Origin: a virus
Lineage: Duplodnaviria > Caudoviricetes
IMG/VR virus record: IMGVR_UViG_3300027833_000047
Coordinates: 1 to 62,802 of that record
DNA: 62,802 nucleotides
Strand: one strand, 5' to 3'
The notes beneath the pieces are model-generated. The model had not been told where the DNA came from, did no database searches, and saw only the letters and a program-made list of their open reading frames with translations. Position 1 is the stretch's first letter. Each line of letters opens with the position of its first letter. Shown here one piece after another: positions 2,352 to 61,902 of this stretch. Position numbers and translations under genes: made by a program.

Positions 2352-2359
2352 TATAAATA
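2352..2359 (-). promoter_or_regulatory. TATTTATA putative late-promoter motif
   Basis: 18 nt upstream of the ATG at 2333; the motif recurs before most structural genes. Confidence 0.6.
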
Positions 2360-2444
2360 CTGCGAGAATGTAAAATACAGATTTCTATTTACTTTATTTT
2401 TTTTTAGTTTTATCACTTGAATATATTATTATTTTTATAAATTA

Positions 2445-5400
2445 TTAGCAACCACTTCCGATTCCACTACAATTACCACCTATACATGGTGAGAACGATG
2501 TTACAACACCACCACTAACATTAAAAATACATCCCGTATCTGAAACAAATGCTCCGTTACCTATTAATACGTAGTTACCACTACTAAAGGCGTAAACCGA
2601 ATTACCTGTAGGACAATCTAAGAACGTAGATGTACTAACATCTGTAAAATATTCAATCGTTGGAGTACCCCCACCATTAAAGGAGTTACATGGTTGTGAG
2701 GAACCTCCTCCGTGAAGTCCGAAGAATAGACCTAATGAGTTATATCCTGGAGGTGTCGTATTACATGGGTCAAAACCTGTAATGAAATTACCAACAGGAC
2801 AATCATTATACATTACTTCTTCAGTAGATAAGTTAAGGTCTTTTATCACTCTAACCCAACTAACATCTTGGTGACATTGTGTAGAGGTAGGGTGGGAACA
2901 GTTTTGATTAGGTCCTGACCATATACATGCACAAACAAAATCAAAGTCAATAAGTCCACTAGGGGAATTCGCGGCGATAGCCTGAGCAGCTATAGAAGAT
3001 ACAGGAATTGCATTATATCTATCGTTATTACTTTGTCCAGGATAACCAGGACCCCCTGCTAAAGTAGAAAGAGGTGGGTAATTTAGAAGGTCGGGGGTTC
3101 CTCCTACATTATTCATAGATACCTGACCAATAGTTATACCATTTGCCGTAATATCAAACACTCCTCTATTACATGTATGACCTCCAAAACAAGGTGACCC
3201 GTTTAACCCAAACTGGTTATATTCAACAATAAATGTCAGAGACTCAATACAACTAACTAAAGGTAGTGTTGTTGGCGTTGGTGTTGGTGTAGGTGTCGCA
3301 AGTAGGGTAGTTGTGGGTGTTGGCGTAGGCGTAGTTGTTTGTGTTGGAGTTGGTGTTGGTGTAACATCATTACAACAGATATTATATACAATTTTAGTAC
3401 TTAATCTAAAGTATACATTTTTTAATTCTTTACAATCTGAAATAATTGTTATTAAATTTTGGCCAATATCTAATGTAAAACTTTCAATTTGTGGTATCGT
3501 TTTAAGTATCTCATTAATTGTATTTAACCAATCTTGTGCACTAGGATAATCACCTAAGGTCGTTCCCGTATAAAATGGGTTCTCTACGTGATAAGGAGGT
3601 GTCATTGTACCACCTGAAAAATCAACTATAACATAAAAAACAGCATTTACCAATGAACAGTCCTGATGACCAACAGTTAAATCAAGGTAACCCTCATTTA
3701 ACATAGAACCAAAATCTCTAATACCCGCTGAAGTGGTAATGAAATCGTTTTCACATATCTCAGTTACTTCATAACATTCAACAATTTGATTGTTACAATT
3801 AATTGTGACTGAGTTCGTTGCGGTACACCCATTATGGTCAGTAATAGTTGCGGTATAAGTACCCCCACTCAAACCATTAATGGACGTAGTTGTCTCACCA
3901 TTACTCCATTGAATATTAAACGGAGCAACACCCTGATTAATAGTTATATCCGCCATACCATCATTACCTGAAACACATTCAGTAGGGACTATTATAAAGT
4001 TTACTCCTGTAGATGGGCCTATCGTTATAGTTTGGGAAACTGTACAATTTCGTACATCAATAACATTTAAAAGATATGTTGATGGAGATAGTGAAGTTAT
4101 TGACTGAGTATTTGATGGGTCGTCAATTACTGAATAAACAACAGAACCCGTATTAACATCTGTTAATATATAATCAAATGGTCCCTGTAACGGAACTGAA
4201 CCCGCGGTTAGATTAATATCTATTATTCCATTATTATCGCCACAAGTACCATCAGTGATTGTACTATTAACATTAAATTTAACAGTATTAGATATAGTTT
4301 TTTGAGTCGTGTATGTACAATTACTATTTTGTGATACAATTGTTACCGTATACGTGTCAGAAGGTAAATTGTTAAAAGTATGTGACTGTGACTGAGTACT
4401 GATAGTGTCAGAAGTTATACTACCGGTGACTGAATACGTAAATATTCCTGAAGGACCTATTAAGGATATTGATATGGAACCCTCATCATTACAGACAGAG
4501 TTAGTTACACCAACACTAACAACTGAAAACCCTGCGGTTGAGGGTATAGGCTCTATTGATGTAACTGTACAACCACCAGCATCTGTAATAAGTGTACTAT
4601 TAAACCCTCCACATAATCCCGTAAATGCCACTGACAAATTATTTGAAACTATTACTTCACCTGAACTATTTTGATACGTATATGGTGAAGTACCCCCCAA
4701 TATAGTCACCACTACTTGACCATCACAATCAAAACATCCCGCCTGTGTCGGTACCGCTGAAACTACAGACAATGGGTCAGCTAACCCTACGTTAGTACTT
4801 TGGCTTAATCTACACCCTTCAGAATCTGTAACTTCAACCCCCCATGAACCCACAGATAATCCAGTCGCGGTTGGTGTTGTTTGTCCATTAGTCCATAAGT
4901 ACGTGTATGGTGGGGTTCCACCTAATAAGTTAGTGACAGTCACGGTGCCGACATTAGAACCACATGGAGAATCAGGAACAACTAAAAGATTGTAACTTAT
5001 CGGGTCAGTACTTATAACTATTGTGTTCGTTGTTTGTACAATCGCACCTCCAAAATCGGTAACAATACAATAATAAGTCCCTGGTTGAACATTTACAAAT
5101 ATTTGTACATTAGAAAGAGCATTAAAAGATTGTACAATTACACCTAAAGAATCATATAAATCGTACTGAAATGGGCTAGATAATGAATCATTTGTAACAG
5201 TTACTACTCCATTGGTGTTACCACATGTCGTACCCGAAGAAGTGATAGTGGCGGTAAAACAACCTTCAACATTAACATTAATAATTACATCTTGATTAAT
5301 CCCACCTGAACTATCTTGAAGTACAAAAACATAACTACCTTCGTCAACTCCACTCCAAATAAATGGACCGTCACCTGTTTGTTGAGCCAATAGTAATCCA

Positions 5401-20222: not shown

Positions 20223-20230
20223 GATAAATA
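20223..20230 (-). promoter_or_regulatory. TATTTATC putative late-promoter motif
   Basis: 13 nt upstream of the ATG at 20209. Confidence 0.6.
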
Positions 20231-43347: not shown

Positions 43348-43355
43348 GATAAATA
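43348..43355 (-). promoter_or_regulatory. TATTTATC putative late-promoter motif
   Basis: 16 nt upstream of the ATG at 43331. Confidence 0.55.
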
Positions 43356-43418: not shown

Positions 43419-45365
43419 TTATGAGTTCATACCTCCACCAGTCACAGACCCACCATACGTTCCATTTGTGTTAAGTAGTTGGGAACTGATTGTCGCCATC
43501 GCGTCTGGATTATTTATTAAGTATCTAGCAAACTCCTCCTTAGTCATAACCGAACTAGTTGGCATATTATCAACTGTTAAATTAACTTGACCACTCACAG
43601 TAAGGTTAGAATTAGATGCGATGGTACTTGTTGTTGGTTCACTAATGTTAAGACTTGAAGTATTTAAATTACTTACAGATAAATTATTTCTCTGCATAGT
43701 TTCATTACCTTCATTATTTCTCTGTACGGTTTCCTTACTTTCTTCGTTAACATTTTGAAATCCTTCATTATTTCTTTGGAGAGTAGACTTAAATATTCCA
43801 TCCGTACTTGTATCGATTTTATCTAAATAATCTGTCACATCATCCCATCCGGTTTTCATCATCGTTAAAAGTGCCTCTCCATTCGCCACTTTAAGTGCTT
43901 CTTCGAGACCTCTACTTATCGCATCACTAGCGGTATCAATACCTTTAACTACCGCATCTACAATCTCTTTAGCGGTATCTTCGTCAAGTTTTAATTGGGT
44001 CTCTACCTGACCTGCCATATCTACAATTTTTTGTGGTACCTTAATTTCTTCTTCTCGTTTTAAAAATTCAGTAGTTAATAAGTCTTGTGCTTTGACCGCG
44101 TCTTCGGCAAAAGTTTCAAAACCACCACTTTTTACTAAATTTAGTGCGGTTAAGTTAATTAAAGTGTTCTGAGCCGCCTGTATTTGGTTAAGATACCCCA
44201 TAGACTCCTTAGCGACATCAAGTTCTGACATCTTATTAACATCTAACATTTTCTCTAATTGAGTATAATCATTAGCAGTTAAATCATTAAATCCTTCTCC
44301 AATCTTTTTAACTGTACCATCAGGCATAGTTATCTCCAAATTACCATTAGCACCAATTTTACTCATATTAGCAATAAGTTCTTTTTGTTCTTCAGGAACA
44401 GTATTCATATTTCCTAATATATTTAACTTTTGAGTTTTTTGGGCGGCCATCATACCCATCTCAGAAAACTCTTGGTATGACATTCCAGCTAATTTTGCGG
44501 CTTCTCTAAGTCGATACATCTCCGTAACAGGTATATCAAACTCTCCCGACTCTTCATTAAATGTAACTGCTCCCGCAGCCATATCAACAAGACTATCTTG
44601 TAGTCCTGCCATGTCTGTTTGAGCCATGTGAAGTAATTGGAATGGGTCACCTAGTTTACTAATTGAACCACCTAACATTTGAAAACCTGCCGCGGTTTCA
44701 ATAGCGGTTTCTGGCGACATTAAACTATCCGCAAGGCTAACCGTATTACCCATATCTATTCTTAGTGCTTGAGCCTGTGCCACCATCTTAGAGAGTCCTT
44801 GTACACCATCTTTAAAATTGTATGTTACCATCAACTTTAAATTCTTGTTAACACCACCCATAAACTCTGAGACATTTAGACCGTAAGACCTGGCCTCTTT
44901 GGTCATATCCCCCATCATTTCGAGTGTTTGGTCGGTAGTATATCCTAAGGTATCAAATGCGGTTGCCATACTAGCCAACTCTGCAGATGTCATATTCGCA
45001 GTCATCCCCAATACTTGGAATCCGGTTGTTTGTTCATCAGTAAGGAAAGTACTCCTCATCATTGAATTATTTATTGCCGCAAATAATTCTATGTTTTTTT
45101 CGGCCCCAATACCTATTAACCCGGTGGTCTTAGCTGATTCGGCCATTACTTTTTGAACTTGGTTACTAACTGCCCTTGTCTGACCAATACTTTCCCTTAC
45201 CGCATTCGCAGTTTTAGTATTAATACCACCCGCTCTCTCAATTAACGTACCGACATCTGTAATACTCTTTCTAAGTTCTTTACCGAACGTTAAAAGACTA
45301 ATATTTGCTAATGTAATATTAGCTGCAATATCTGCACTGTCTTTTACTAATCCATCGTTAAACAT
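43419..45365 (-). CDS. Tape measure protein (648 aa)
   Basis: Ala/Met/Gly-rich helical sequence downstream of the tube and chaperone genes; TATTTATA at 45379-45386. Confidence 0.72.
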   Translation of the reverse strand: MFNDGLVKDSADIAANITLANISLLTFGKELRKSITDVGTLIERAGGINTKTANAVRESIGQTRAVSNQVQKVMAESAKTTGLIGIGAEKNIELFAAINNSMMRSTFLTDEQTTGFQVLGMTANMTSAELASMATAFDTLGYTTDQTLEMMGDMTKEARSYGLNVSEFMGGVNKNLKLMVTYNFKDGVQGLSKMVAQAQALRIDMGNTVSLADSLMSPETAIETAAGFQMLGGSISKLGDPFQLLHMAQTDMAGLQDSLVDMAAGAVTFNEESGEFDIPVTEMYRLREAAKLAGMSYQEFSEMGMMAAQKTQKLNILGNMNTVPEEQKELIANMSKIGANGNLEITMPDGTVKKIGEGFNDLTANDYTQLEKMLDVNKMSELDVAKESMGYLNQIQAAQNTLINLTALNLVKSGGFETFAEDAVKAQDLLTTEFLKREEEIKVPQKIVDMAGQVETQLKLDEDTAKEIVDAVVKGIDTASDAISRGLEEALKVANGEALLTMMKTGWDDVTDYLDKIDTSTDGIFKSTLQRNNEGFQNVNEESKETVQRNNEGNETMQRNNLSVSNLNTSSLNISEPTTSTIASNSNLTVSGQVNLTVDNMPTSSVMTKEEFARYLINNPDAMATISSQLLNTNGTYGGSVTGGGMNS

Positions 45366-45390
45366 AGTTTTCTTTTTATATAAATATTAC

Positions 45391-46409: not shown

Positions 46410-46898
46410 TTAGTATACTAAAATACATCTATCAGGACGTAATGTTGCTGTAATTGTAGCTAACGCATCATCACTATATCCTAAACTATCGAAATTAACG
46501 TCAGTTAAAAATGTTCCCTGTAGAATCCATTTTTCAACCGCTACTCCTGTTGGGTCCAACATCTCTAGGTCTAAGTCTTTCTTATAACCTGCAGCATATC
46601 CCATACGTCCTGTTACGGACTCTGAATGTAATCTAACCCACTCCATTAACGCTTGTGACGCTGATGGTCCAATTGGGTCACGGAATGTAACGTTTATCGT
46701 GTTCCACACGAATCTACCGGCTACGTATGTAGAGGTGTTTAAAAAAGGAATCTCTGTTGACCCGATTTGGATGTTAGGTCTTGATGTAGACTCAACATAC
46801 CAAGAATTGATACCCAATGATGATGGAAACGATAGTATAAATCGATTCTTCCTTTTTGGTTCATAGGGAACGGGCATTTTCATTAATAAGTCTGCCAT
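46410..46898 (-). CDS. gp19: Tail tube protein (T4 gp19-like)
   Basis: EPKRKNRF, RP......EIPFLN..YVAGR..W..I.VTFRD, YKKD..L..LDP.G..VEKW.L.G; TATTTATA at 46935-46942. Confidence 0.9.
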   Translation of the reverse strand: MADLLMKMPVPYEPKRKNRFILSFPSSLGINSWYVESTSRPNIQIGSTEIPFLNTSTYVAGRFVWNTINVTFRDPIGPSASQALMEWVRLHSESVTGRMGYAAGYKKDLDLEMLDPTGVAVEKWILQGTFLTDVNFDSLGYSDDALATITATLRPDRCILVY

Positions 46899-47018
46899 TG
46901 TATTTTGGTTTTATATTTCTTTAGTTTATTTAATTATAAATATCCAGTTTAAAAGTTTTTCTATTTACTTTTATTTTTTTTTCGGTAATCTACTAGAGCA
47001 AATAAAATATAATAATTA

Positions 47019-47874: not shown

Positions 47875-48021
47875 CTACTTCGTTTTTTTATTGATTTTTA
47901 CCATTAGTCTTTCTAGTTGTGACTCAGATATTACAATATTCTGAGGTTTTTTAGAAAAAGACTTTTTTCCGTCAGACTTTACGTTTAACGACTCGTTAAG
48001 TGTTTTTTTCTTGAATTCCAT
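47875..48021 (-). CDS. Small basic protein, 48 aa (not in the ORF track)
   Basis: MEFKKKTLNESLNVKSDGKKSFSKKPQNIVISESQLERLMVKINKKTK*; fills the gap between the sheath and HAD genes; TATTTATA at 48080-48087. Confidence 0.7.
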   Translation of the reverse strand: MEFKKKTLNESLNVKSDGKKSFSKKPQNIVISESQLERLMVKINKKTK

Positions 48022-48097
48022 TTTATTTTTGTTTAAACGTTTAATTGGCTAAGAGGAGAGAATTAACCCTCCTCATTATTATAAATATAGTTAGTTA

Positions 48098-51280: not shown

Positions 51281-51312
51281 TGTGTAATTTTTTTCTTAAG
51301 TTTTTATTTATT

Positions 51313-51320
51313 GATAAATA
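51313..51320 (-). promoter_or_regulatory. TATTTATC putative late-promoter motif for the sheath gene
   Basis: 32 nt upstream of the sheath ATG; a divergent TATTTATA lies on the + strand at 51358-51365. Confidence 0.6.
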
Positions 51321-51414
51321 TTAGTAAAAAGATGAAAAAACTAATAAGCTAAGAGTATATTTATAAAGAGTATGAAAAAGTTCTACCTTTTTTCTACATT
51401 TAAAAAAAACACCT

Positions 51415-51564
51415 ATGGCTAAAATAAAAAACATAAAAATTTCACCTGAGTCACATATGACTTTAAAAATATACTGCGAAAAACACGGTTTAAAGATATA
51501 TAAGTTCTTAGAAAAATTAATTGAGGATAATTGTAAAGAATCAAGAGATATCTACGGAGAGTAA
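51415..51564 (+). CDS. Small ribbon-helix-helix-like DNA-binding protein, 49 aa (not in the ORF track)
   Basis: MAKIKNIKISPESHMTLKIYCEKHGLKIYKFLEKLIEDNCKESRDIYGE*: beta strand, helix, G-turn, helix. Its stop abuts the stop of the convergent gene. Confidence 0.7.
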   Translation: MAKIKNIKISPESHMTLKIYCEKHGLKIYKFLEKLIEDNCKESRDIYGE

Positions 51565-52605: not shown

Positions 52606-53165
52606 TATTCTTTAATTTCACTGATAAAAAAAACTTTATTTTTTGAGTTAATCATTTCGACCTCATTTGCATCATAAATTGGTTCTTCACTATTTTTTCT
52701 AACAAATGAGTCGTACTTATATGGATTATAGGTTATTACGTTCTCATTTGGTTCATCAGGTAAGTTCTCACATGGAAACGTACAAAAATCCATTAAAGTT
52801 CCAATCACAAATGCGTGTACATTTTTTCTCATCTCATCTCTAACTTTTTTCTTTCCTCCTTGTCTTACCCTAAATTCAACATTTTTTAATTTAACGTAAT
52901 CGGCATACATCACAATCTTATTTTTATATGATACTGAAAATGTGTGTTTATGTAAGTTATAGTATACCATAACCTTTTTACCGACATAATTTACTTCTTG
53001 ATTATCGTTACCACATTTATGACAAATATAAGGGTCATCACCACCATCACTTAAATCCCAAGACCATCCACATTCATCACACACGACTTTTTCGCCCTCA
53101 ATACCCTCACACATATGTGACATACGACTCTTAATTAAATTTATTTCTTTTATTAATTTTTTCAT
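52605..53165 (-). CDS. Hypothetical protein: Zn-ribbon plus YNLH...KNVHA domain (186 aa)
   Basis: CDECG...CHKCG; VYYNLHKHTFSV...RKNVHAFVIG...YNPY. Confidence 0.65.
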   Translation of the reverse strand: MKKLIKEINLIKSRMSHMCEGIEGEKVVCDECGWSWDLSDGGDDPYICHKCGNDNQEVNYVGKKVMVYYNLHKHTFSVSYKNKIVMYADYVKLKNVEFRVRQGGKKKVRDEMRKNVHAFVIGTLMDFCTFPCENLPDEPNENVITYNPYKYDSFVRKNSEEPIYDANEVEMINSKNKVFFISEIKE

Positions 53166-53677
53166 ATTCCTCTAAATTCCCCATCATTGACAGGTGCGGC
53201 AATTATACTTCGGTAAAAGGGCTTATACCCTCCATATGTATGTTTATTATCACTAACAACTCGACCATCGTTTACGACAGAATAATACCTTACTCGGTCC
53301 TCAGTTTCGTAATAACCTAAATAATCACCATAATCGATATCGATGTTTAATTCATCTAACGCATCTTGATATACACCAACTTTTAAGTTTCCAGGCTCCA
53401 TTTGTGATAAATTAGAATTCGCGTAATTTTGATTATCGGGGGATTCGATTGTTACATAACCTTTAAATTCTACGGGCGGTAAAAATTGTATCCCATCCTC
53501 TAAGGACTCACCGTATACATCATCAGTTTTAGTTTTTTGTCGGTCAACTTTGTATAAAACAATAGTGAAATGCATATCACCTTCAAGCCACTCTCGACCC
53601 ATATTTTGTTCCAAACCAAAATCTTCGGACCCGAAAAACTTCTCTAAACGCGTTATTGGTATCTTTCTATTGTTCAT
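53162..53677 (-). CDS. Neck / head-closure protein (T4 gp14-like)
   Basis: LYKVD...DDVYGES..IQFLPPVE; located in the neck region; TATTTATC 5 nt upstream (53683-53690). Confidence 0.55.
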   Translation of the reverse strand: MNNRKIPITRLEKFFGSEDFGLEQNMGREWLEGDMHFTIVLYKVDRQKTKTDDVYGESLEDGIQFLPPVEFKGYVTIESPDNQNYANSNLSQMEPGNLKVGVYQDALDELNIDIDYGDYLGYYETEDRVRYYSVVNDGRVVSDNKHTYGGYKPFYRSIIAAPVNDGEFRGI

Positions 53678-53723
53678 ATATTGATAAATAGTTAGTTTAT
53701 AGTTATATTATAAATATTACATT

Positions 53724-55487
53724 ATGGAAAGTAATAAAGATAAATTATCAAAGATACCTGAAGTTAGGGCGCAACGTACATTAGAGGTGTACGATGGGTT
53801 CAATAACTATATACAATCCATTCAAAAAAAATTCAGAGAACAAAAACATTTTAAATTAACTAGGGCTCAAGCCGACTACATCAATAGTTATCATGAGTTA
53901 GTCCCTAAAATAGCCAGAAAGTGGGTCGAATTAGACAGTTACTTCGGTAAAAAAATGATGGAAGATAAACTTCTAACAAGAGTCCCTGAAAAAGTCTACA
54001 TAGAAAAACTTTTAGTTGAAAAAGATAAGTCCTTTCATATTTGGGGTAAAATCTTTGAGAATGAGAAATTACATTCCTTTTGGTTACCTCGTGTCGCACT
54101 AATTAAATCACAAGAAACCGAAAAAGTTGAAATTGATTATGAAAAGTATTCACATAGACCACCATTAGAACATCAAATTGAATCCATAGAAAAATTGGCT
54201 AGTCATAAAAAATATATTTTAGCTGACGATATGGGATTAGGTAAAACTACCTCAACAGTAATCGCCGCTTTAGAGTCGGGGGTGGAAAGAGTATTAATTG
54301 TTTGTCCAGCATCATTAAAGATTAATTGGAAACGAGAAATTCAAAACTACACTGAGAAATCGATATCGATAGTCGAGGGTAAGAAATGGGAAAGTGCGGA
54401 TTTTGTTATTATTAATTATGACATATTAAAAAACTTTCATGATATCAAAAACAAAGAAGAGTCAATTATATTACAAGAAGGATTCGATTTAGTTGTTGTT
54501 GATGAGGCACATTACATTCAAAATGTTCAGGCTAAAAGAACCAAACTTATTAATGACATTATAAACTCAATAGGTAAGGTTTGGTTGTTAACAGGAACAC
54601 CAATGACATCAAGACCAATAAATTATTATAACTTATTAAATTTAGTTGAGTCACCTGTCGCATACAATTGGATGGCATACGTTATTAGGTATTGTGAAGG
54701 ATATCAATTTAATGTGGGTAACCGTAAAGTATGGAACGTAAATGGTTCATCTAATCTAACAGAGTTAAGAGATAGAACTAAAACTCACGTTCTTAGAAGA
54801 TTAAAACAAGACATATTAGATTTACCAGATAAAATTATTACACCTGTTTACCTTAATTTAAAATCTAAAGAGTATGTTGCTCTAATGGGTGAATATTATG
54901 ATTGGATGGAAGATGATAGGGAAAAGAAATCATTAACGGTACAGTTCTCTATGTTAATGAAAATAAGACAGATAATCGCTGAAAATAAAATTAAAGAAAC
55001 TTGTGAATTAGTTGAGAACATTATCGAACAAGGTAAAAAAGTTATAGTTTTCACTAACTTTACAAATACCTTAAATCAAATTGCCGACCATTTCGGTAAA
55101 AAGGCAGTGAAGTTAGACGGTAAGATGAATAAAATATCAAGACAAAACTCAGTAGACCAATTTCAAGAAAACGATAAAGTAAGGGTGTTTGTAGGTAATC
55201 TTAAAGCTGCGGGTGTTGGAATAACACTAACGGCAGCTGAGGCGGTTATTATGAATGATTTATCTTTTGTCCCTTCGGACCATTCTCAAGCTGAAGACCG
55301 AGCGTATAGGTATGGTCAGAAATCTAACGTTTCAGTATTTTATCCAATATTTGAAAACTCCATTGAAGGAATTATTTACGATATACTCTCACAAAAGAAA
55401 AATGTCTTTGAAACTGTTATGGGGGATAATGAAGGAAGAGGAGACATTATGGAACAAATTATTAATGAAATATCAGTTAGAAGATAA
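53724..55487 (+). CDS. SNF2-family (SMARCAL1/HARP-like) helicase/ATPase
   Basis: LADDMGLGKT, VCPASLKINW, VDEAH, LTGTP, AAGVGITLT and QAEDRAYRYGQ. Confidence 0.92.
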   Translation: MESNKDKLSKIPEVRAQRTLEVYDGFNNYIQSIQKKFREQKHFKLTRAQADYINSYHELVPKIARKWVELDSYFGKKMMEDKLLTRVPEKVYIEKLLVEKDKSFHIWGKIFENEKLHSFWLPRVALIKSQETEKVEIDYEKYSHRPPLEHQIESIEKLASHKKYILADDMGLGKTTSTVIAALESGVERVLIVCPASLKINWKREIQNYTEKSISIVEGKKWESADFVIINYDILKNFHDIKNKEESIILQEGFDLVVVDEAHYIQNVQAKRTKLINDIINSIGKVWLLTGTPMTSRPINYYNLLNLVESPVAYNWMAYVIRYCEGYQFNVGNRKVWNVNGSSNLTELRDRTKTHVLRRLKQDILDLPDKIITPVYLNLKSKEYVALMGEYYDWMEDDREKKSLTVQFSMLMKIRQIIAENKIKETCELVENIIEQGKKVIVFTNFTNTLNQIADHFGKKAVKLDGKMNKISRQNSVDQFQENDKVRVFVGNLKAAGVGITLTAAEAVIMNDLSFVPSDHSQAEDRAYRYGQKSNVSVFYPIFENSIEGIIYDILSQKKNVFETVMGDNEGRGDIMEQIINEISVRR

Positions 55488-55505: not shown

Positions 55506-55513
55506 TATTTATA
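55506..55513 (+). promoter_or_regulatory. TATTTATA putative late-promoter motif
   Basis: 12 nt upstream of the SOD-fusion ATG; the motif follows the coding strand on + genes. Confidence 0.6.
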
Positions 55514-55525: not shown

Positions 55526-57088
55526 ATGGAGTTCAAAAGGTTAAAAGACAAAATCTCATTAATTGAACATAAAATTAATAGTCGAGAAAATTTAACTAAA
55601 GTTAATCCTATTATCTCGCACACTCCCAAACAAATTTTAACAGAAATGAAAAAAATTGGTATAGAAGAATTACCGTACTCTTATTCTGCCTTAGAGAGAT
55701 TTATAGATTCAGAAACTATGGATACTCACTATAATAAACATTATAAAGGATACGTAAAAAAATTAAATGACGCTCTTTCAAGTAGAGTCGATGGAAATAT
55801 TGAATTAGAACAACTAGTAAAAGGTATTTCAAGGTATAATAAAACAATTAGAGATAATGCGGGTGGAGCATTTAACCACGCATTATTTTGGAAAATTATG
55901 TCACCTAAAAAACAAAGAGCTGAAGGTGCGGTATATGAAAAAATAATTAAAGATTTTGGAAGTTTTCCTAAATTTAAAAAAATATTTAGTAATGAGGCCA
56001 TTAAAAATTTTGGCTCAGGATGGACTTGGTTAGTAGTGACTAAGGAAGGTAAATTAAAAGTTATGTCCACCCCTAATCAGGACAACCCATTAATGAATGT
56101 GGTTAAAAATGGAGGTTACCCAATCCTTTGTTTAGATACGTGGGAACACGCATATTATTTAAAATATCGCAACAAAAGAGACGAATATGTTAGAAATTTT
56201 TGGACAATAATTAATTGGGATTATGTTAATGAATTATATCTAAATCAAACCTCTAAAAAATTAACTGAGACTAAGATAGTAAAAAACATCATCTCTGAAG
56301 GGGCGAGTGCGGGTTGTAATAGAAACCAAGTACAAACATATCGAAGATTATTTAATACAAACCCTGAAATCAAAAAACGTTTTATGTATACTATAATGGA
56401 CATTTTAAAAGAAGTGTTTTCGGAATACTGGTATGAAAAAAATAAATACGATAAAGGTCAAATGTCAGGAATTTACGATTATGAACAAAAAGGTCGTTCT
56501 GTTATTAATAAGTTAAATACTAACTACACATCATTTTGTACTTTAGTTAGCGACACTAACCAGTATTTAAGAAAATATGGTATTGATGCAATTAACTTTA
56601 ATGATAAAAACCGTAAAGAGCAACTATCTGAAGTAGATAGACTTAATAAATATTTAGTCGAATTAAGGTACTCTATCTTTAAATCAGACTCTCCAACATT
56701 TAAAACAATTATGACGGGATTAGATAAAACTAACAAATTTGGGGATAAAAGAGAGGTTGATGCGGTAGCAAGTTTAAAAAATATTTTCAATACTAGCGAC
56801 GTTAAAAAAGTTGGTGAACTAGGTGATGTGGATGATATGATTAAAGGTATTGATGCGGTTGTTGAATTACCTGAAGGTACTAAAACAATACAAATTAAAC
56901 CATTTAATAGAATTAATAAACAAGATGGTAAAGTTATTGTTTATGGTACAGGAAACGTCAAACCCTATAAAACTGACTACTTAGTGTTTCATAGTAATAA
57001 ATTAGGTACCGAAGTTTTTGAAAATAAAAACACAAAGATAATTAACGGAAGATACGTTTTTAGTGAGTCATCACAATATAATAATTAA
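55526..57088 (+). CDS. sod: Fe/Mn superoxide dismutase (Mn-type signature) fused to a C-terminal PD-(D/E)xK-like domain
   Basis: LPYSYSALE, HYNKH, GGAFNHALFW, FGSGWTW, NQDNP, DTWEHAYY; C-terminal DDMIKGIDAVV...TIQIK. Confidence 0.88.
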   Translation: MEFKRLKDKISLIEHKINSRENLTKVNPIISHTPKQILTEMKKIGIEELPYSYSALERFIDSETMDTHYNKHYKGYVKKLNDALSSRVDGNIELEQLVKGISRYNKTIRDNAGGAFNHALFWKIMSPKKQRAEGAVYEKIIKDFGSFPKFKKIFSNEAIKNFGSGWTWLVVTKEGKLKVMSTPNQDNPLMNVVKNGGYPILCLDTWEHAYYLKYRNKRDEYVRNFWTIINWDYVNELYLNQTSKKLTETKIVKNIISEGASAGCNRNQVQTYRRLFNTNPEIKKRFMYTIMDILKEVFSEYWYEKNKYDKGQMSGIYDYEQKGRSVINKLNTNYTSFCTLVSDTNQYLRKYGIDAINFNDKNRKEQLSEVDRLNKYLVELRYSIFKSDSPTFKTIMTGLDKTNKFGDKREVDAVASLKNIFNTSDVKKVGELGDVDDMIKGIDAVVELPEGTKTIQIKPFNRINKQDGKVIVYGTGNVKPYKTDYLVFHSNKLGTEVFENKNTKIINGRYVFSESSQYNN

Positions 57089-57107: not shown

Positions 57108-57115
57108 TATTTATA
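57108..57115 (+). promoter_or_regulatory. TATTTATA putative late-promoter motif
   Basis: 14 nt upstream of the neck gene ATG at 57130. Confidence 0.6.
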
Positions 57116-57129: not shown

Positions 57130-58242
57130 ATGTCTGTAATTATTGAACCACAAAGAACAAAACTGTATACTCGTGTAAAACACCTGTTAGGTGCACCAAT
57201 ACGTAGTATCGAAATAGAAGACGAAATGATGGACTCATTATTAGAGTTTTCAATTCAAGACTATGCCCAATATGTAAATGATTGGCTAATTGAATCACAA
57301 TGGACATCTCTTTACGGGTTGAACTTAGATGAAGAATCAGTTACTAGGGCATTTACTACACGTTCCTTAGATTGGGAAACTCAATACACTTATGCCTATT
57401 CCAAGATTGTTGGACTACAAGCAGGTGGAGATTCTGTACTTAAAAAGGACTATATAGATTTAAAAACAAACCAACAAATTTATGAAATACCTGCGGGTAG
57501 AGAGTTAAATGAATTATTATGGTTTACAAGAGCAGAATTAGACGCCGCCTTTTTTGACCCGTTTATGGGTGGATTTGGTGGTATGGGTGGTGTAGGTATG
57601 GGTGGTGGTGCCGGTTTTTCACAAATGGGTCAATCTGGTAACTATATGATAACTCCCGCGTTTGACATTTTACTTAGAATGCAAGATATCAACTTAAAAA
57701 GAAGATTAATTGGTGGTGAATTAACTTATAGGGTAACCGCGTTACCTGAAGGTAAAAAGGCATTACATCTTTATAATGTACCTGGAGGTAAATTTGATTT
57801 TGGTAATATGCAAAACAATGAGTACCGAGTATGGTACTGGTATTACGAAACTGACGATAGAGAAGATTGTTTAGCAAAAAATCCTGATATTATTAGATTA
57901 CCTTCTGATATTCCAATCGATGAGATGTTGTGGGCAGAATTAAATAATCCGGCACAGGCTTGGGTTAGAAAATGGTTCGTAGCCTATGTAAAGGAAACGT
58001 TAGGACGTGTTAGAGGTAAATTTAGTGGTAACTTAAAGACACCCGATTCTGAAGTAACCATGGATTATGATTCACTACTTACTGAAGCTAAAGATGAAAA
58101 AAGTAAATTATTGGAGGAGTTAACCGCAAGATTAGAAAGACTAAGACCCGATAAGATGATGGAGAGAGAAGCTAACTTAGCGGAACAATTAAATAAATCA
58201 TTACAATACAGAGCGTTACCAAGACAAATGTACGTAATTTAA
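57130..58242 (+). CDS. Neck / head-tail adaptor protein (T4 gp13-like)
   Basis: LLGAP...IEIEDEM and WVRKWFVAYVKETLGRVRGKF....P...VTMD...L..EA..EK.KL.EEL. Confidence 0.75.
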   Translation: MSVIIEPQRTKLYTRVKHLLGAPIRSIEIEDEMMDSLLEFSIQDYAQYVNDWLIESQWTSLYGLNLDEESVTRAFTTRSLDWETQYTYAYSKIVGLQAGGDSVLKKDYIDLKTNQQIYEIPAGRELNELLWFTRAELDAAFFDPFMGGFGGMGGVGMGGGAGFSQMGQSGNYMITPAFDILLRMQDINLKRRLIGGELTYRVTALPEGKKALHLYNVPGGKFDFGNMQNNEYRVWYWYYETDDREDCLAKNPDIIRLPSDIPIDEMLWAELNNPAQAWVRKWFVAYVKETLGRVRGKFSGNLKTPDSEVTMDYDSLLTEAKDEKSKLLEELTARLERLRPDKMMEREANLAEQLNKSLQYRALPRQMYVI

Positions 58243-58244: not shown

Positions 58245-58583
58245 ATGGGAATAATAAAAACACGACCAATTAAAAAAATTATTAACGGTAAAGAACATAT
58301 TGTTTCTGAAACTATTGTGGTTAATAATGTGTCTTCCTACACCACTAAAGGTGAAGTCTCAATTATTGTAAAAAATAGTAAATCAGAATGTGTAATTTTA
58401 TTAGATGAAACTACTACTCAACATGTTACAATAAAATCTATGTCCGATTCAGTAGTTAAATCAGGCAAACTAATCGATGAACAATATAATGAAATTAAAC
58501 TCGAAAAGTTTGCCTCAGTTGAATTAAGATATATTAATGGTTATTGGTATGTTATGTCTTCTGATGGGCTAAAGAACTCATAA
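58245..58583 (+). CDS. Small beta-rich hypothetical protein (112 aa) resembling fibre C-terminal modules
   Basis: VTIK...IDE....I.L....SVEL....GYWYV pattern; overlaps the polymerase 3' end convergently. Confidence 0.55.
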   Translation: MGIIKTRPIKKIINGKEHIVSETIVVNNVSSYTTKGEVSIIVKNSKSECVILLDETTTQHVTIKSMSDSVVKSGKLIDEQYNEIKLEKFASVELRYINGYWYVMSSDGLKNS

Positions 58584-61383
58584 TATTCATATTTTTATTA
58601 ACATAATTCATATCCACTAATTTAGTGGTACCCTCTAAATACATATAATAAGGGTTTATATTAACGTCATCCCAAAATCTAATTTCAGGGTCAGACAGTG
58701 TTAGTACCTCATCTAAATTATCTTGACTACCTTCTTTCATAGGATACCCCCTTACTAATTTTGTCTGTGATTTAGTAAAAAATGGTCTATCGTCTGGATT
58801 ATCCACTAATATCTCGCTACGAATTTCAGGAGAAAACACTACAAGTAATGGTTCAATACGTTTATTGAACGCCGCCATATAACGAGCAATATTGTACTCA
58901 CCTAATTTATCAGGGGTATCACTAATATATTTATCATCAATTAAATAACAATTTAATACGATTTCTGTAGAGTCGGGAGGCATAGGTTTACCATTATTAA
59001 TCGCGTACTCTCTTTTTTCCGCTGCAGTTGCGTTCCACTTATTCTTTTTCTGTACATCACCATGAGACTTTCTTTCCCCATTATTAACATAATAAATAGT
59101 ATCACCTAAACCAACATTTAACTCATGTTTTATCGCTAATTCCATATGTGCTTGTCGTGACATTAAAGAACCTGATTTGGTTCTTTTTTTCATATGTAAT
59201 TTATAATCTTTTATACTTTGTTTAACACGAGATTTATTTGCAATTTTAGAGATAGGTATTTCTAAATTGTAAATTTTATTTACATACTCATAATAGAAAT
59301 CCAAGAACTCGTGACCTTTACCGTCTAATAATAAACGAAGTCCGTGGTCCAAAAACTCAGCAACGTATGTTTGTAATTTTTTAGATTTAATACTGTTACC
59401 CGTTAATTTAACTTTACCTGTATCGGTAAGTAATGCGTAATTTTTACGAGCCACGTTAATTGTTGATGGCCACACACCATCGGTATCTAACCCCATTTCT
59501 CCCCTCATAAAGATATCATTATACTCGGCAACATCTGCCTCAGTACCTATGTACTCCTTACCTTCTTTAACTAAACCATTTAGTCCCTTACCAATATAAG
59601 TGTGATTTTTACGTTCAGATGGTGATGAAAAGTTTACACCATCCGTATCCATCACTAATGGTTTGTACCCCCTTTTCATAAACCACATTATCATTTGTCT
59701 AAGATATTGTCTACCCGTACAGGTAATTTGTTCCCCCATATCCATATCACCCCACGGAAATACGTGTGGAGCGGATAATGACCCGAAAAATGCATTAATA
59801 AATATTTTAATTGGTAGTTGTTTACGGTTATACTTTTTAGACTGTTCAGGGTCTGAAACGTATAAGTCTGACGCCAATTGTTTATAATTGATACGTGTGT
59901 CTCTGAAATACTTTAACATACTCTTCATTGCTCCCGTTACATCACATTTAGGGAAGATGTCGTGAACTAACTGTATCGATGGGTATAGTGAGGAGTAATC
60001 GAGTTTTAAAACGTCTGTAGAGTACCCTACTGCCATCAATCTTGACAATCCACCTGTAAATGGTCGTTTCTCACCTTTCTTAGGAATCGCTAAGTTATGT
60101 TTATATGACCAAGCTGCCATAATCATTTTCCATAATGTTGCAGTACCCATTGTTGATAACCTTTCGTATGTGGTGGGTACTAATTTAGAAAGAAGGAAGT
60201 TTGCTTGATTAAACTCCTCGTCCACAACCATAGTCTCCCAAATATCATCATAAAGATACCTTTCAATAATGTAATTCCCATTTACCTTTTCATAGTGACC
60301 TGGAAATCTTTCCATTAGGTTTTCAGTACCTGTTGAACCAACTTCTTTATAACCACCTGTCTTTGGGTTGAAATAATAGTCTTTATTATCGAAATAAATT
60401 TTACCAATCTTATCTCCTTCAACATAAACACGGTTTTCTTTTTCGGCCCCAATAAATTGAGTTATGTATTTAAGACCCCAACTTTTAATGTCTGAGTTAA
60501 TTGCTTGTGTTCTTCTAACTGCATGTGCGATATCAATGATATTGTAACCCCACATCATTGTTTGAGTGTATGGTTCCATTTCATTCGCTAACTTCAACAT
60601 ACCCTCCTTCTGTCTTAACTTTTGTTTAGGGTTTAACGTTTTAGATATTTTTTTAATGTCTAATCCTAATATCTCCGCCCTACGAAGAATAAAAGGAAAA
60701 TCGAAAAAGGCTGAGTTATAACCACCAATTAATGTTGGTTTTATACTTGCGATTGTATCAAAAAATTCAATAATAACTTTACGTTCCTCTTCATCGTTTT
60801 CACAGGCAATAACCTTTTCGAAACCTTTATTATCTTTCATCCCTATAAGGAATATTTTACTATCCTCAGGAGATAATCCTGTAGTCTCAATATCAAATAC
60901 GAAACGATGTACCTCATCGTACTCATCGAAACCTTTGAAAAGTCTTTTATTTTTTTGTATTAGATATTGTTCGGCGGGTGCCAGAATCATTATGTAGTCT
61001 GAATTACCACGACCCCATGGGTCTAATCCACCACCTTTAAAAAAGTTTACTAAATTACTATATGACTTAGTTGTTTTAACTAAATATTTTAAACCCTGTT
61101 CCATTCGAGTGTCATTGTGAGTATCTAATGTCTCAATAATGATTCCGTGTGTGGACATAGCTTGTTTTTGAGCCGCCTTAGAACCACCATAAAAGTTGAG
61201 TCCTTGTAGGTTACCTACCCATGCAAATGGAATAAATGTGTCTGATTTTATTGATTTACCCTGTATTGGGTCTTGAATTACTTTGAATATTTTTCCTGAC
61301 GCGTAATCATATTCTAACGCTACAATATATTTTTCAGGGTCCTCTCCATTGAGGAACGTTTCAATTTGTTCTTGTGATACCAT
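58552..61383 (-). CDS. Family B DNA polymerase with a 3'-5' exonuclease domain
   Basis: Exonuclease motifs FDIETTG, GYNSAFFDFPF, YLYDD; polymerase motifs LDYSSLYPS, KIFINAFFG, MDTDG and KNYA. Confidence 0.95.
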   Translation of the reverse strand: MVSQEQIETFLNGEDPEKYIVALEYDYASGKIFKVIQDPIQGKSIKSDTFIPFAWVGNLQGLNFYGGSKAAQKQAMSTHGIIIETLDTHNDTRMEQGLKYLVKTTKSYSNLVNFFKGGGLDPWGRGNSDYIMILAPAEQYLIQKNKRLFKGFDEYDEVHRFVFDIETTGLSPEDSKIFLIGMKDNKGFEKVIACENDEEERKVIIEFFDTIASIKPTLIGGYNSAFFDFPFILRRAEILGLDIKKISKTLNPKQKLRQKEGMLKLANEMEPYTQTMMWGYNIIDIAHAVRRTQAINSDIKSWGLKYITQFIGAEKENRVYVEGDKIGKIYFDNKDYYFNPKTGGYKEVGSTGTENLMERFPGHYEKVNGNYIIERYLYDDIWETMVVDEEFNQANFLLSKLVPTTYERLSTMGTATLWKMIMAAWSYKHNLAIPKKGEKRPFTGGLSRLMAVGYSTDVLKLDYSSLYPSIQLVHDIFPKCDVTGAMKSMLKYFRDTRINYKQLASDLYVSDPEQSKKYNRKQLPIKIFINAFFGSLSAPHVFPWGDMDMGEQITCTGRQYLRQMIMWFMKRGYKPLVMDTDGVNFSSPSERKNHTYIGKGLNGLVKEGKEYIGTEADVAEYNDIFMRGEMGLDTDGVWPSTINVARKNYALLTDTGKVKLTGNSIKSKKLQTYVAEFLDHGLRLLLDGKGHEFLDFYYEYVNKIYNLEIPISKIANKSRVKQSIKDYKLHMKKRTKSGSLMSRQAHMELAIKHELNVGLGDTIYYVNNGERKSHGDVQKKNKWNATAAEKREYAINNGKPMPPDSTEIVLNCYLIDDKYISDTPDKLGEYNIARYMAAFNKRIEPLLVVFSPEIRSEILVDNPDDRPFFTKSQTKLVRGYPMKEGSQDNLDEVLTLSDPEIRFWDDVNINPYYMYLEGTTKLVDMNYVNKNMNIMSSLAHQKT

Positions 61384-61455: not shown

Positions 61456-61484
61456 ATTATAGGTAATGATTATAGAATTGTCAA
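61456..61484 (-). promoter_or_regulatory. Consensus sigma70-type promoter for the DNA polymerase gene
   Basis: Perfect TTGACA-N17-TATAAT about 70 nt upstream of the ATG. Confidence 0.8.
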
Positions 61485-61520
61485 ACTATTTTTTTTTCTT
61501 CTTACGTTATTGCTCATATC

Positions 61521-61874
61521 TTAAATTATGTTAATATATAAATTTTCTCTTATTGGAGCAATTAGTTCACCCATTGAATTATGTATATGAAATTCACCGA
61601 TAAATCTACCTTTAATATTAGTGTCCCTTTTACTCCATTTATAATAAATATAGTATTCATAAGGAGCATCAGGGTTAACTTGTATTTTTTCAGTGATATA
61701 AGCATTATTCATTAGTACCTTTTGTATACCATTCGCTTCATTTTTCATTGAGAATCTTATAGTTGCGGTATCTAAATCGGCGTCAAACAACTTATAGGCA
61801 TCTGTTCGTCCGTCTCTGACGACTTGCATTTTAAGGATTGGTAACTCACTTTTATGTTTTATAAAAAATTCCAT
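61521..61874 (-). CDS. BppU-N-like (baseplate upper / fibre adaptor) small protein (117 aa)
   Basis: FFIK...LP.L......DL..ATI.FSM...YKW...DT...G.F.GEF.I; TATTTATT 6 nt upstream. Confidence 0.55.
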   Translation of the reverse strand: MEFFIKHKSELPILKMQVVRDGRTDAYKLFDADLDTATIRFSMKNEANGIQKVLMNNAYITEKIQVNPDAPYEYYIYYKWSKRDTNIKGRFIGEFHIHNSMGELIAPIRENLYINII

Positions 61875-61902
61875 ACTATCAATAAATAGTTTATATATTT
61901 AA

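Follow-up and report, generated by a model that had tools for sequence, protein, structure and literature searches.

TATTTAT, a probable phage-specific promoter box in an uncultured marine myovirus with a presumed Bacteroidota host

TATTTAT boxes in the window and in related phages

The window, i.e., the whole stretch of 62,802 nt analysed here, most likely belongs to an uncultured marine myovirus, whose genome would comprise about 300 kb according to completeness estimates and whose host is presumably a member of the Bacteroidota. Searches with its tail sheath and polB against cultured phages yielded only distant relatives with less than 37% identity. The TATTTAT boxes that precede genes are listed below, followed by two contrast sites. 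The term "kept" gives the share of distinct orthologous upstream sequences of a gene that contain the box, and positions are counted with the first T of the box as position 0.

2352..2359, minus strand: TATTTATA, 18-nt spacer to the ATG of 3..2333 (phrog_15511, 777 aa)
20223..20230, minus strand: TATTTATC, 13-nt spacer to the 1811-aa gene, AAA at positions 11-13; kept 26/26
22592..22599, minus strand: TATTTATG, 4-nt spacer to gene 22126..22587 (gp25-like baseplate wedge); kept 38/38, with the 4-nt spacer in 29
27129..27136, minus strand: TATTTATA, 32-nt spacer to gene 25717..27096 (DnaB-like helicase); kept 56/56
31563..31570, minus strand: TATTTATA, 11-nt spacer to gene 31327..31551 (74 aa), AAA at positions 11-13; kept 25/25
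43348..43355, minus strand: TATTTATC, 16-nt spacer to gene 38565..43331 (1588 aa), after which come 105-aa and 2219-aa genes
45379..45386, minus strand: TATTTATA, 13-nt spacer to gene 43419..45365 (648 aa); kept 11/11
46935..46942, minus strand: TATTTATA, 36-nt spacer to gene 46410..46898 (tail tube), start predicted at 46931; kept 32/32
48080..48087, minus strand: TATTTATA, just past the sheath stop codon, 58-nt spacer to the 48-aa ORF 47875..48021
51307..51320, minus strand: predicted sheath promoter, TATTTATC at 51313-51320, initiator AAA at 51307-51309, and a 32-nt spacer between the box and the sheath ATG (51280)
51358..51365, plus strand: TATTTATA, 49-nt spacer to the conserved 49-aa ORF 51415..51564 (+)
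53683..53690, minus strand: TATTTATC, 5-nt spacer to gene 53162..53677 (171 aa); kept 44/44
53709..53716, minus strand: TATTTATA, 31-nt spacer to gene 53162..53677, which thus has two boxes
55506..55513, plus strand: TATTTATA, 12-nt spacer to gene 55526..57088 (520 aa, superoxide dismutase domain); kept 27/32
57108..57115, plus strand: TATTTATA, 14-nt spacer to gene 57130..58242 (370 aa, weak match to a head-tail adaptor); kept 41/41
61881..61888, minus strand: TATTTATT, 6-nt spacer to gene 61521..61874 (117 aa); kept 16/25
53681..53709, plus strand: contrast site TTGATA-17-TATATT, before the helicase gene 53724..55487
61456..61484, minus strand: contrast site TTGACA-17-TATAAT, 12/12 match, before polB 58552..61383, which lacks TATTTAT

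All 15 sites named in the original prediction contain TATTTAT on the strand given (its minus-strand numbers include the eighth base), and one further sense box, 53709..53716 (-), was missing from its list. The eighth base had been described as A or C, which is true for 13 of the 15 sites, with G at 22592 and T at 61881. The spacers of 4-58 nt between 8-mer and ATG were confirmed for the window, the 58-nt and 49-nt cases preceding the ORFs of 48 and 49 aa. The former ORF lies ahead of a 283-aa gene, and the latter points away from the sheath gene and is found in 78/78 relatives. The 1811-aa gene heads a row of seven tightly packed genes from 20209 down to 2445, a terminator-like hairpin (22660..22633) directly precedes the box of the gp25-like gene, and the box of the DnaB-like gene sits within the 3' end of the preceding ORF. 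Among the protein names proposed initially, gp25-like is supported by phrog_261 and phrog_43, and gp14-like and BppU-like find no support in PHROGs or Pfam. Boxes are located ahead of the genes for sheath, tube, gp25-like wedge, head protease and amidase and of the gene preceding the major head protein; a cluster with glycosyltransferase, dUTPase, PhoH and exonuclease genes has none. Nevertheless, the assumed tie of the box to structural genes had to be abandoned, as the constantly boxed DnaB-like gene heads a row in which ribonucleotide reductase genes follow in the same direction.

Over the whole window TATTTAT is not enriched (52 copies vs 53.3 +/- 6.8 in shuffles). The intergenic DNA, which amounts to 2179 nt or 3.5% of the window, holds 20 of the 52 sites, and in an unbiased k-mer ranking of the 70 nt upstream of starts TATTTAT is the top-enriched 7-mer (13/37 genes vs 0.97 expected). 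As background for the spacers between co-directional genes we used 1000 dinucleotide-preserving shuffles of the same AT-rich spacers (73-79% AT). The window has 12 sense copies in these spacers vs 1.46 +/- 1.18 expected (largest shuffle 7), and 6 antisense copies vs 2.95 expected. The corresponding numbers for the 199-kb relative G002 are 50 sense copies vs 8.29 +/- 2.83 (largest shuffle 18) and 13 antisense copies vs 12.4, and in both genomes none of the 1000 shuffles reached the observed sense count. Moreover, 98 of the 175 TATTTAT sites of G002 are intergenic, although only 10.6% of this genome is intergenic, and in 21 relatives, with crude gene calls (longest ATG ORFs), TATTTAT ranks first among the upstream 7-mers in 19 and second in the remaining 2. 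Enrichment over an AT-matched background and strand bias, both suggested originally as checks, were thus found, namely in the spacers upstream of genes.

Conservation in related phages, a further check suggested at the outset, is equally evident, as presence or absence of the box is preserved per gene among relatives numbering in the hundreds. The box-bearing genes have it in the shares listed above, and for the sheath gene TATTTAT is present in 78/78 relatives despite varying flanks (49/49 distinct sequences). The shares for genes without the box are 0/34, 0/26, 0/27, 0/51, 0/51, 0/32, 0/31 (ssb), 0/19, 3/34, 1/35, 3/48, 3/25, and 3/24 (polB). That the pattern is a chance product of AT-rich spacers, which would agree with the AT content of these spacers and with the expected number of copies in the whole window, has therefore virtually no probability left: the shuffles in both genomes and the binary conservation of orthologous upstream regions rule it out.

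Anatomy of the element and the predicted start of transcription

The full element reads a-TATTTAT-W-N3-AAA. At the 67 sites of G002 the eighth base is mostly A (39) or T (21), more rarely C (6) and once G, and position 11 is A in 51/67. AAA occupies positions 11-13 in 26/47 leader-bearing sites vs 3/73 TATTTAT copies inside genes, and ATG is present there in 12/67 sites vs 1/73 copies inside genes. The spacers to the start codon in G002 have two maxima, one of exactly 3 nt with 11 sites and one of 12-17 nt, and they measure 3-5 nt in 19/67 sites; for the 171-aa gene, 44 orthologous upstream sequences have spacers of 3 nt in 17, 4 nt in 9, and 5 nt in 16 cases. A -35-like element was not seen, since no position from -30 to -2 is above 0.76 bit and the enrichment of k-mers within -45 to -5 does not exceed about 3-fold. 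TATTTAT would then be the -10-like core of a promoter a-TATTTAT-(A/T/c)-N3-AAA that lacks a -35-like element, and transcription would most likely start at the A four bases past the 8-mer, as the A at position 11 and the contig ends described below suggest. For the 16 boxes of the window the starts predicted in this way are 2348, 20219, 22588, 27125, 31559, 43344, 45375, 46931, 48076, 51309, 53679, 53705, and 61877 on the minus strand and 51369, 55517, and 57119 on the plus strand.

In one large gene class the start codon takes the place of the initiating AAA exactly 3 nt after the 8-mer, so that these messages would be leaderless. The original idea that very short spacers lead to leaderless mRNAs is supported by the 11 exact 3-nt spacers and the frequent A at position 11, and more than a quarter of the predicted late-type sites (19/67, spacer 3-5 nt) seem to begin at or next to the start codon. 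The remaining leaders would comprise approximately 8-35 nt. Leaderless and short-leader messages fit a host without Shine-Dalgarno pairing.

It had also been considered that the motif acts at the RNA level, which is not favoured because the A-tract keeps a fixed distance to the box rather than to the start codon. UAUUUAU could be a processing, stability or translation signal instead of a promoter, in line with its presence in spacers of co-directional, possibly co-transcribed genes, some of which are crossed by cDNA contigs, and AU-rich sequences are often targets of RNases. However, the distance to the start codon varies between 3 and 58 nt while that to AAA is constant, boxes head gene rows and come after terminator-like hairpins, and in the 3-nt class the element would precede a message starting at its own AUG. 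We therefore regard an RNA signal as very unlikely.

Marine metatranscriptome contigs, which cover only some promoters, span the genes for tube and sheath. In two contigs, obtained from different samples of a single study, the end falls on 51309 and thereby on position 11 of the sheath element, and others run through the tube promoter. Since contigs cannot show true starts, these are contig ends and not mapped starts, and they give only a hint of the start position. One of the two carries 21 non-templated T on the plus strand, which correspond to A's ahead of the sheath message, and the second has 19 unaligned letters. These two ends at the same base and the preference for AAA over the copies inside genes, together with the description that AAA tracts favour productive reiterative initiation in E. 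coli (PMC12709180), led us to the idea that the polymerase may slip on the AAA initiator. Late messages of this bacteriophage would then begin, much like those of poxviruses, with 5' oligo(A) heads that are not templated; we put this forward as a tentative and rather doubtful possibility. If true, the oligo(A) head would provide a leader that is rich in A and free of structure, as would suit translation without Shine-Dalgarno pairing in Bacteroidota. A pattern of the sheath leader with an oligo(A) head had 0 matches among the assembled contigs of both viral_contigs and metagenome_contigs. The plain sheath leader pattern matched 15 metagenome contigs, and all 15 listings are consistent with genomic DNA; one contig starting near the site was rejected as an RNA end, as its sequence begins inside the box.

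Genes without the box and candidate readers of the box

The genes ssb and polB were said to lack the box and to have sigma-70-like promoters instead, and this proved correct. Besides the polB site listed above, the ssb upstream region contains TTGACT-16-TATATT (10/12 match), and the site 53681..53709 (+) overlaps the minus-strand boxes within a 46-bp divergent spacer. As a class, sigma-70-like matches are not above shuffles in promoter scans. The top 8-mers of the upstream regions without the box are ATATTTGT (11 vs 0.66 expected) and TATATTTG (9 vs 0.55), and TAnnTTTG is present in 17/65 of these regions vs 2/46 with the box. According to PMC9723704, flavobacteria have TAnnTTTG as their sigma-A box, located at -12 to -5. 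Judged from these motifs, genes without the box would use either the Bacteroidota sigma-A box or a promoter of the TTGACA/TATAAT type and, the TATTTAT box included, the genome would therefore have at least three promoter classes. Of the late transcription system with distinct specificity that was originally proposed, the separate, phage-specific signal unlike the ssb and polB promoters stands, while the designation "late" derives from gene content alone, and the DnaB and ribonucleotide reductase genes are untypical late genes.

We consider it probable that TATTTAT is a phage-specific middle or late promoter box that is read by the host core polymerase together with a phage sigma factor. The host core enzyme would be redirected to the boxes by a phage-encoded sigma lying outside of the window, as no sigma gene was found within its 62,802 nt. 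The original prediction had suggested seeking this factor elsewhere in the genome, and indeed the relatives encode two sigma-like proteins: a very divergent one of about 250-267 aa, similar to gp55 or sigma region 2, and a canonical sigma-70-family protein of 271 aa. Both are candidate readers, and either may serve the TTGACA/TATAAT class instead of the TATTTAT class.

The divergent protein is a conserved ORF in 5/5 long relatives with a weak match to the gp55 PHROG (phrog_234, E 2e-5 to 5e-3), which also has matches in 8/14 control genomes and therefore detects sigma factors in general. Its single-sequence Pfam scores are under the curated thresholds, and a profile of 84 sequences against the PDB gave SigA region 2 with E 0.0024-0.008 and gp55 with E 0.2. 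The AlphaFold model (pLDDT 89.4) superposes on T4 gp55 of the late open complex (7d7c_F) with Z 10.9 and rmsd 5.2 over 117 aligned residues, and on sigma-E region 2 bound to -10 DNA (4lup_A) with Z 9.7 and rmsd 2.4 over 91/91 residues, whereby a Z near 10 may arise by chance among helical proteins. Further fold matches are 7n4e_F and 5h6x_A, and all 50 matches listed are sigma factors. A Foldseek search of the PDB with the model found nothing at E <= 0.001, with nearly all listed rows being sigma factors. Model and profile together indicate that the protein has the fold and the sequence signature of a sigma-70-family region 2. The canonical sigma is present in 2/5 relatives (Sigma70_r2, E 2e-18 and 2e-9). 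In a tblastn search the divergent sigma had no match at E <= 1e-3 in 50,697 cultured phage records; its homologs number at least 8000 in a 90%-identity database and form 1204 clusters at 50% identity, and judging by these numbers the phage clade is very abundant. Among 79 further phage contigs around such homologs TATTTAT is the top 7-mer in 11 and within the top five in 33, a co-occurrence which is weak because the neighbourhoods hold few boxed genes, and which is consistent with the promoter reading.

Alternatively, a host sigma, i.e., a relaxed sigma-A variant or an alternative sigma, could read the box without any phage sigma. TATTTATN shares TA and a T-run with TAnnTTTG, the position is nearly equal (-12 to -5 in PMC9723704 vs approximately -11 to -4 here), flavobacteria are described to have minor sigma motifs SM4-6 (PMC9723704), and the window is devoid of a sigma gene. 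Yet the canonical TAnnTTTG is found on a different, nearly exclusive gene set, the G that defines the host box is missing (eighth base G in 1/67 sites), and two sigma-like genes are conserved in the relatives, which makes a host sigma unlikely. Another alternative is a phage-encoded RNA polymerase too divergent for detection, as in phiKZ-like or crAss-like phages. A jumbo genome of the estimated size would suit such an enzyme, the window encodes giant proteins of 2219, 1811, 1589, and 1588 aa without a family match, and divergent phage polymerases evade Pfam. However, the beta subunit of RNA polymerase (PF00562) was matched in none of 5/5 partial relatives, with a positive control in 14/14 genomes (the search of the same relatives for T7-type polymerase, PF00940, gave no match and was uninformative as its control was silent). 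Furthermore, the giant genes lie in boxed rows rich in tail genes, the two sigma-like genes imply a bacterial-type core enzyme, and the possibly related moraphage lineage is reported with a core sigma factor and without a polymerase, as far as PMC12619734 describes it. We therefore judge a phage polymerase to be highly improbable. No gp45-type clamp (phrog_223) was matched in the five relatives either; as these are only 52-71% complete, a clamp or an RNA polymerase of the phage may have escaped detection.

No paper was found that describes the TATTTAT/TATTTATA motif as a phage promoter. A map of three promoter classes (TAnnTTTG; TTGACA/TATAAT-type; TATTTAT-N4-AAA) would be readable directly from the sequence, which would allow timing classes for hundreds of unidentified genes in metagenomic Bacteroidota jumbo phages and conclusions from the promoters on the host phylum. 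The box would also offer a defined DNA target for probing recognition by a very divergent gp55-like sigma.

Comparison with known systems

The box was originally noted as the reverse complement of the T4 late promoter. This is true for the string, but incidental and without mechanistic weight, because the element works in one orientation, as the sense and antisense counts of G002 show. On the sense strand TATTTATW differs from TATAAATA only at the two middle bases, and the co-directional spacers of G002 contain TATTTATA 30 times vs TATAAATA 7 times, so the T4 consensus does not apply. Similar to T4, where late promoters have an A/T-only 8-bp box about one helical turn before the start and neither a -35 nor another conserved upstream element according to PMC2988020, the phage has an A/T-only 8-bp box about one helical turn before the predicted start, AT-rich sequence downstream, no -35 element and no conserved element upstream. 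Moreover, the box lies ahead of tail and head genes of a contractile-tailed phage, and the small sigma-like protein of the relatives appears to resemble gp55 in its modelled fold. In contrast, the predicted start is 4 nt past the box instead of 6 as in T4, the candidate sigma has 250-267 aa with an extra C-terminal helical domain vs 185 aa of gp55, and many predicted messages are leaderless. In T4, gp55 acts on the late promoters together with gp33 and the sliding clamp gp45, whereas a gp45-type clamp was not detected in the five partial relatives.

Sigma-A promoters of Bacteroidota are described with a -7 box TAnnTTTG, a -33 TTTG, and short leaders without Shine-Dalgarno sequence (PMC9723704). 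The presumed host is of the same phylum, the box has nearly the same position to the start, leaders are short, and the phage itself carries the host-type box on a different gene set. However, TATTTAT lacks the terminal G and has A instead of the host T, position 5 being always A, and both boxes are almost mutually exclusive. The share of leaderless messages, reported as 5.5% for Flavobacterium psychrophilum in PMC9723704, compares with 19/67 sites with a 3-5-nt spacer here. Moraphages are aquatic metagenomic Bacteroidota jumbo phages with genomes of up to 307 kb and predicted Flavobacteriia hosts, for which gp25, gp6, tube, sheath, polB, and a core sigma factor, but no RNA polymerase, are described, and the available text mentions no promoter motif (PMC12619734). 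Compared by this description only, they are similar to our clade in jumbo size, hosts, gene set, and sigma, and in that no polymerase was matched in the five partial relatives. They are mostly from fresh water (PMC12619734), whereas the RNA runs of our phage, i.e., those listed as holding at least a fifth of this sequence's words, are marine metatranscriptomes.

A last resemblance is that to poxviruses, where the predicted element would share the A/T-rich core, the short spacer, and initiation within an AAA tract that can abut the ATG. Poxvirus late promoters have a TAAAT initiator and give rise to 5' poly(A) heads, and a single contig end here has about 21 extra A's ahead of the sheath message. 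Poxviruses use another polymerase and belong to viruses of another domain of life, so the resemblance is one of possible working and not of family membership.

Distribution and conservation of the TATTTAT box

All 15 TATTTAT sites listed in the original prediction are found in the window. Counted across the full window, TATTTAT matches expectation (52 copies vs 53.3 ± 6.8). Its distribution is far from chance, with 20 of these copies located in intergenic DNA, which makes up 3.5% of the sequence. Within the 70 nt ahead of starts TATTTAT is the top-ranked 7-mer, occurring at 13 of 37 genes vs 0.97 expected. As AT-matched control, the co-directional spacers themselves were shuffled 1000 times with dinucleotides preserved, which gave 1.46 ± 1.18 sense copies (maximum 7) vs 12 in the window, and 2.95 antisense copies vs 6. 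The same analysis was performed with G002, a 198,834-base relative that overlaps window positions 44170-61503 at 79-89% identity and extends past the window. Here, 98 of 175 copies are intergenic, and the co-directional spacers contain 50 sense copies vs 8.29 ± 2.83 (maximum shuffle 18) and 13 antisense copies vs 12.4 expected. These counts indicate that the element is real and functions in a single orientation, and the original observation is confirmed, being much stronger than could be known at that time. Moreover, TATTTAT is the highest-ranking upstream 7-mer in 19 of the 21 relatives examined and takes second place in the remaining two, including some with a helicase only 64-67% identical to that of the window.

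Conservation was followed gene by gene. The 158 loci surrounding two anchor genes provided the distinct orthologous upstream sequences, in which presence or absence of the box is near-binary. It is kept ahead of the 1811-aa gene (26/26), the gp25-like gene (38/38), DnaB (56/56), the 74-aa gene (25/25), the 648-aa gene (11/11), tube (32/32), sheath (49/49), the 171-aa gene (44/44), the 370-aa gene (41/41), the superoxide-dismutase-domain gene (27/32) and the 117-aa gene (16/25). Among genes that are box-less in the window, orthologs with a box number 0/34 for wedge, 0/26 and 0/27 for the reductase genes, 0/51 each for the 154-aa gene and exonuclease, 0/32 for the UvsX-like gene, 0/31 for ssb and 0/19 for the 203-aa gene, as well as 3/34 for hub, 1/35 for the 283-aa gene, 3/48 for the 346-aa gene, 3/25 for helicase and 3/24 for polB. 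At the sheath gene TATTTAT is present in 78/78 relatives with varying flanking bases.

Two side observations concern the sheath locus. In divergent relatives, GTTTTTT is kept at a distance of exactly 14 nt ahead of the sheath TATTTAT (window 51321-51345 (-) and orthologs); this upstream element is not general to other TATTTAT sites. The 284 nt ahead of the sheath gene, nominally a spacer, contain a 49-aa ORF (51415-51564, +) that is directed away from sheath and is found in 78/78 relatives at 55-100% identity. A TATTTATA of its own precedes this ORF by 49 nt. From the pattern of a short strand (IKNIKIS) followed by two helices, one might guess that the ORF encodes a ribbon-helix-helix DNA-binding protein.

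The window is the entire record of this genome, with 62,802 bases and about 20% completeness as estimated by the tool, and its GC content is 30-38% across most of its length. It encodes a contractile-tail module (sheath, tube, hub, two wedge proteins), replication genes (DnaB-like helicase, ribonucleotide reductase, exonuclease, UvsX-like recombinase, ssb, a second helicase, polB) and four giant proteins:

31596-38255 (-), 2219 aa
38565-43331 (-), 1588 aa
14774-20209 (-), 1811 aa
2445-7214 (-), 1589 aa

The TATTTAT box heads gene rows containing all four giant genes. None of the four proteins matches a PHROG, and their sole Pfam match is to SprB repeats, a flavobacterial adhesin repeat, in the 1589-aa protein. 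Positions 1-2000, the distal part of a 777-aa gene (3..2333, -), stand out from the remaining window by a GC skew of +0.76 and a GC content of 42%; the coding strand must be very C-rich there, and the region may be low-complexity or repeat-rich and fibre-like. Cultured phages include distant relatives only, whereas IMG/VR relatives are numerous, with contigs of up to 214 kb estimated as 52-71% complete. A homolog to one gene of these relatives is also encoded on contigs of 300-310 kb, from which a jumbo phage with a genome of about 300 kb is deduced.

Anatomy of the element and putative transcription start

The anatomy of the element was derived from an alignment of 67 sense sites of G002. The core is preceded by A in 44 of the 67 sites, and at the eighth base 39 sites have A, 21 have T, 6 have C and one has G. 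The next three bases are unconstrained and lead into an A-tract, with A in 51 sites at position 11 (numbering the first T of the box as 0); a conserved upstream element was not found in these sites. AAA occupies positions 11-13 in 26 of 47 leader-bearing sites and drops to 2-5 at offsets a few bases off, and ATG is found there in 12 of 67 sites, compared with three AAA and one ATG among 73 control copies inside genes. The spacing between the 8-mer and the start codon is bimodal, with 3 nt in 11, 4 nt in 4 and 5 nt in 4 cases and a second peak at 12-17 nt. Orthologs of the 171-aa gene have spacers of 3, 4, and 5 nt in 17, 9, and 16 sequences, respectively, and those of the gp25-like gene have 4 nt in 29 of 38. 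The distance between the box and this A is fixed, and in an entire class of genes the A is also that of the ATG; from this we infer that transcription most likely begins at position 11. The box would then span about -11 to -4, and the class with ATG at positions 11-13 would give leaderless messages. Transcription start and start codon seem to be unusually tightly coupled. No start codon in the window is preceded by a Shine-Dalgarno sequence.

The tube and sheath genes are covered by metatranscriptome contigs from four marine runs. For two of these contigs, which come from two samples of one study, the end at 51309 coincides with position 11 of the sheath element. These ends agree with the proposed start and are the sole RNA evidence, and contigs cannot prove a start. 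Other contigs run across the tube promoter. One of the two carries on with 21 T on the + strand, corresponding to A's ahead of the message, and the second with 19 unaligned letters; a 3' tail from library preparation would read as A after the + strand end, not T. Late messages of poxviruses carry oligo(A) heads made by slippage, and it is conceivable, albeit unlikely, that slippage at the AAA initiator provides the messages of this phage with such heads as well. This idea derives from the T-run junction, which falls within the conserved AAA of the sheath element, and from E. coli, in which AAA tracts at the start are described to favour productive reiterative initiation (PMC12709180). Oligo(A)-head patterns were not found in the assembled collections searched.

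RNA contigs also break between 48038 and 48051, near a GC-rich hairpin, GAGGAGGG..CTCTCCTC at 48050-48075 (-), which directly follows the box at 48081 just past the sheath stop. No T-run lies behind it; a protective stem at a 3' or 5' end is a possible role.

Further promoter classes

For comparison, 65 box-less upstream regions of G002 of at least 35 nt were inspected, in which the top 8-mers are ATATTTGT (11 vs 0.66 expected) and TATATTTG (9 vs 0.55). TAnnTTTG is the top motif ahead of genes without TATTTAT (G002, stretches L085-L094), being present in 17 of the 65 box-less regions vs 2 of 46 with the box. A third class resembles the enterobacterial consensus and precedes replication genes. 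The examples in the window are:

43399 (-), TAnnTTTG box
20262 (-), TAnnTTTG box
61456-61484 (-), perfect TTGACA-17-TATAAT before polB
53681-53709 (+), TTGATA-17-TATATT before helicase
30606-30633 (-), TTGACT-16-TATATT before ssb

The flavobacterial sigma-A box is given as TAnnTTTG at -12 to -5 (PMC9723704). The TAnnTTTG class supports a Bacteroidota host and a role as early class that would be served by the host enzyme in its unmodified form. In several cases the box sits four bases before ATG, and leaderless messages would therefore extend beyond the TATTTAT class and include early messages. The original prediction was right in assigning sigma70-like promoters to ssb and polB, and 9 of 15 TTGAYA-N16-18-TATANT matches in G002 lie in the intergenic 10.6% of the genome. 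A TTGACA/TATAAT-type class is odd for a Bacteroidota host. Altogether, the promoter layout appears clean, with three classes.

Candidate sigma factors and comparison with known systems

The window contains no sigma gene. However, all five long relatives share a conserved, divergent ORF, 250-267 aa long, that weakly matches the T4 gp55 PHROG. This model is also matched by ordinary bacterial genomes and hence detects sigma factors generally. In single-sequence scans the protein stays under curated thresholds. The family is unannotated and very large, with at least 8000 homologs and, at 50% identity, 1204 clusters; no homolog was found in cultured phages. Searched against the PDB, an 84-member profile matched SigA region 2 (E 0.0024-0.008), further sigma factors and, at E 0.2, gp55. 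With the confident AlphaFold model (pLDDT 89.4), Foldseek listed almost only sigma factors, none at E <= 0.001. All 50 VIA-align entries listed are sigma factors. Second among them is T4 gp55 of the late open complex (7d7c_F, 117 residues aligned at rmsd 5.2, Z 10.9), region-2 domains superpose closely (4lup_A, 91/91 at rmsd 2.4) and full-length sigma factors cover residues 42-267. For helical proteins a Z near 10 does not settle the matter, but sequence profile and predicted fold agree on a sigma factor. Besides, two of the five relatives, G001 and G003, have a canonical sigma factor of 271-272 aa with regions 2 to 4, encoded on the following stretches:

L110, 1026-1841 (-), canonical sigma gene of G001
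L111, 1046-1864 (-), canonical sigma gene of G003

The third promoter class may be the target of this canonical sigma factor. Neither an RNA polymerase beta subunit nor a gp45-type clamp was found in the five relatives, all of which are fragments, and a search for a T7-type polymerase was uninformative as the control was silent. We favour that the host core polymerase together with one of the two candidate phage sigma factors reads TATTTAT. The moraphages, a Bacteroidota jumbo phage lineage, are likewise reported to have a core sigma factor and no polymerase (PMC12619734).

The box had been assigned to late structural genes, and it does stand before tail and head genes. In G002, for which 75 of 230 crude genes are annotated, it precedes the head protease, the gene in front of the major head protein and an amidase, and is lacking at the large terminase and a sugar and nucleotide metabolism gene cluster. 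Since it also precedes DnaB, with the ribonucleotide reductase genes next, and the superoxide-dismutase-domain gene, "middle/late" is the safer label. The latter gene, putatively driven by the box, encodes a 520-aa protein (55526-57088, +) with N- and C-terminal Fe/Mn superoxide dismutase domains in its first half (E 1e-21 and 2.5e-39).

The original interpretation is partly right. The T4 consensus is TATAAATA, which is near-palindromic and differs from its own reverse complement at two middle bases only. The mirror-image relation of the strings is correct, but a two-base specificity change describes it best, not a flipped promoter. T4 late promoters are described as an 8-bp TATA box from -13 that is followed by AT-rich DNA, with a -35 element lacking (PMC2988020). 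The TATTTAT element, probably a phage-specific sigma-type promoter of an abundant uncultured clade, resembles them in architecture and genes served, but departs from them in the defining sequence, as the sense strand reads TATTTATW and the co-directional spacers of G002 contain TATTTATA 30 times vs 7 times TATAAATA.
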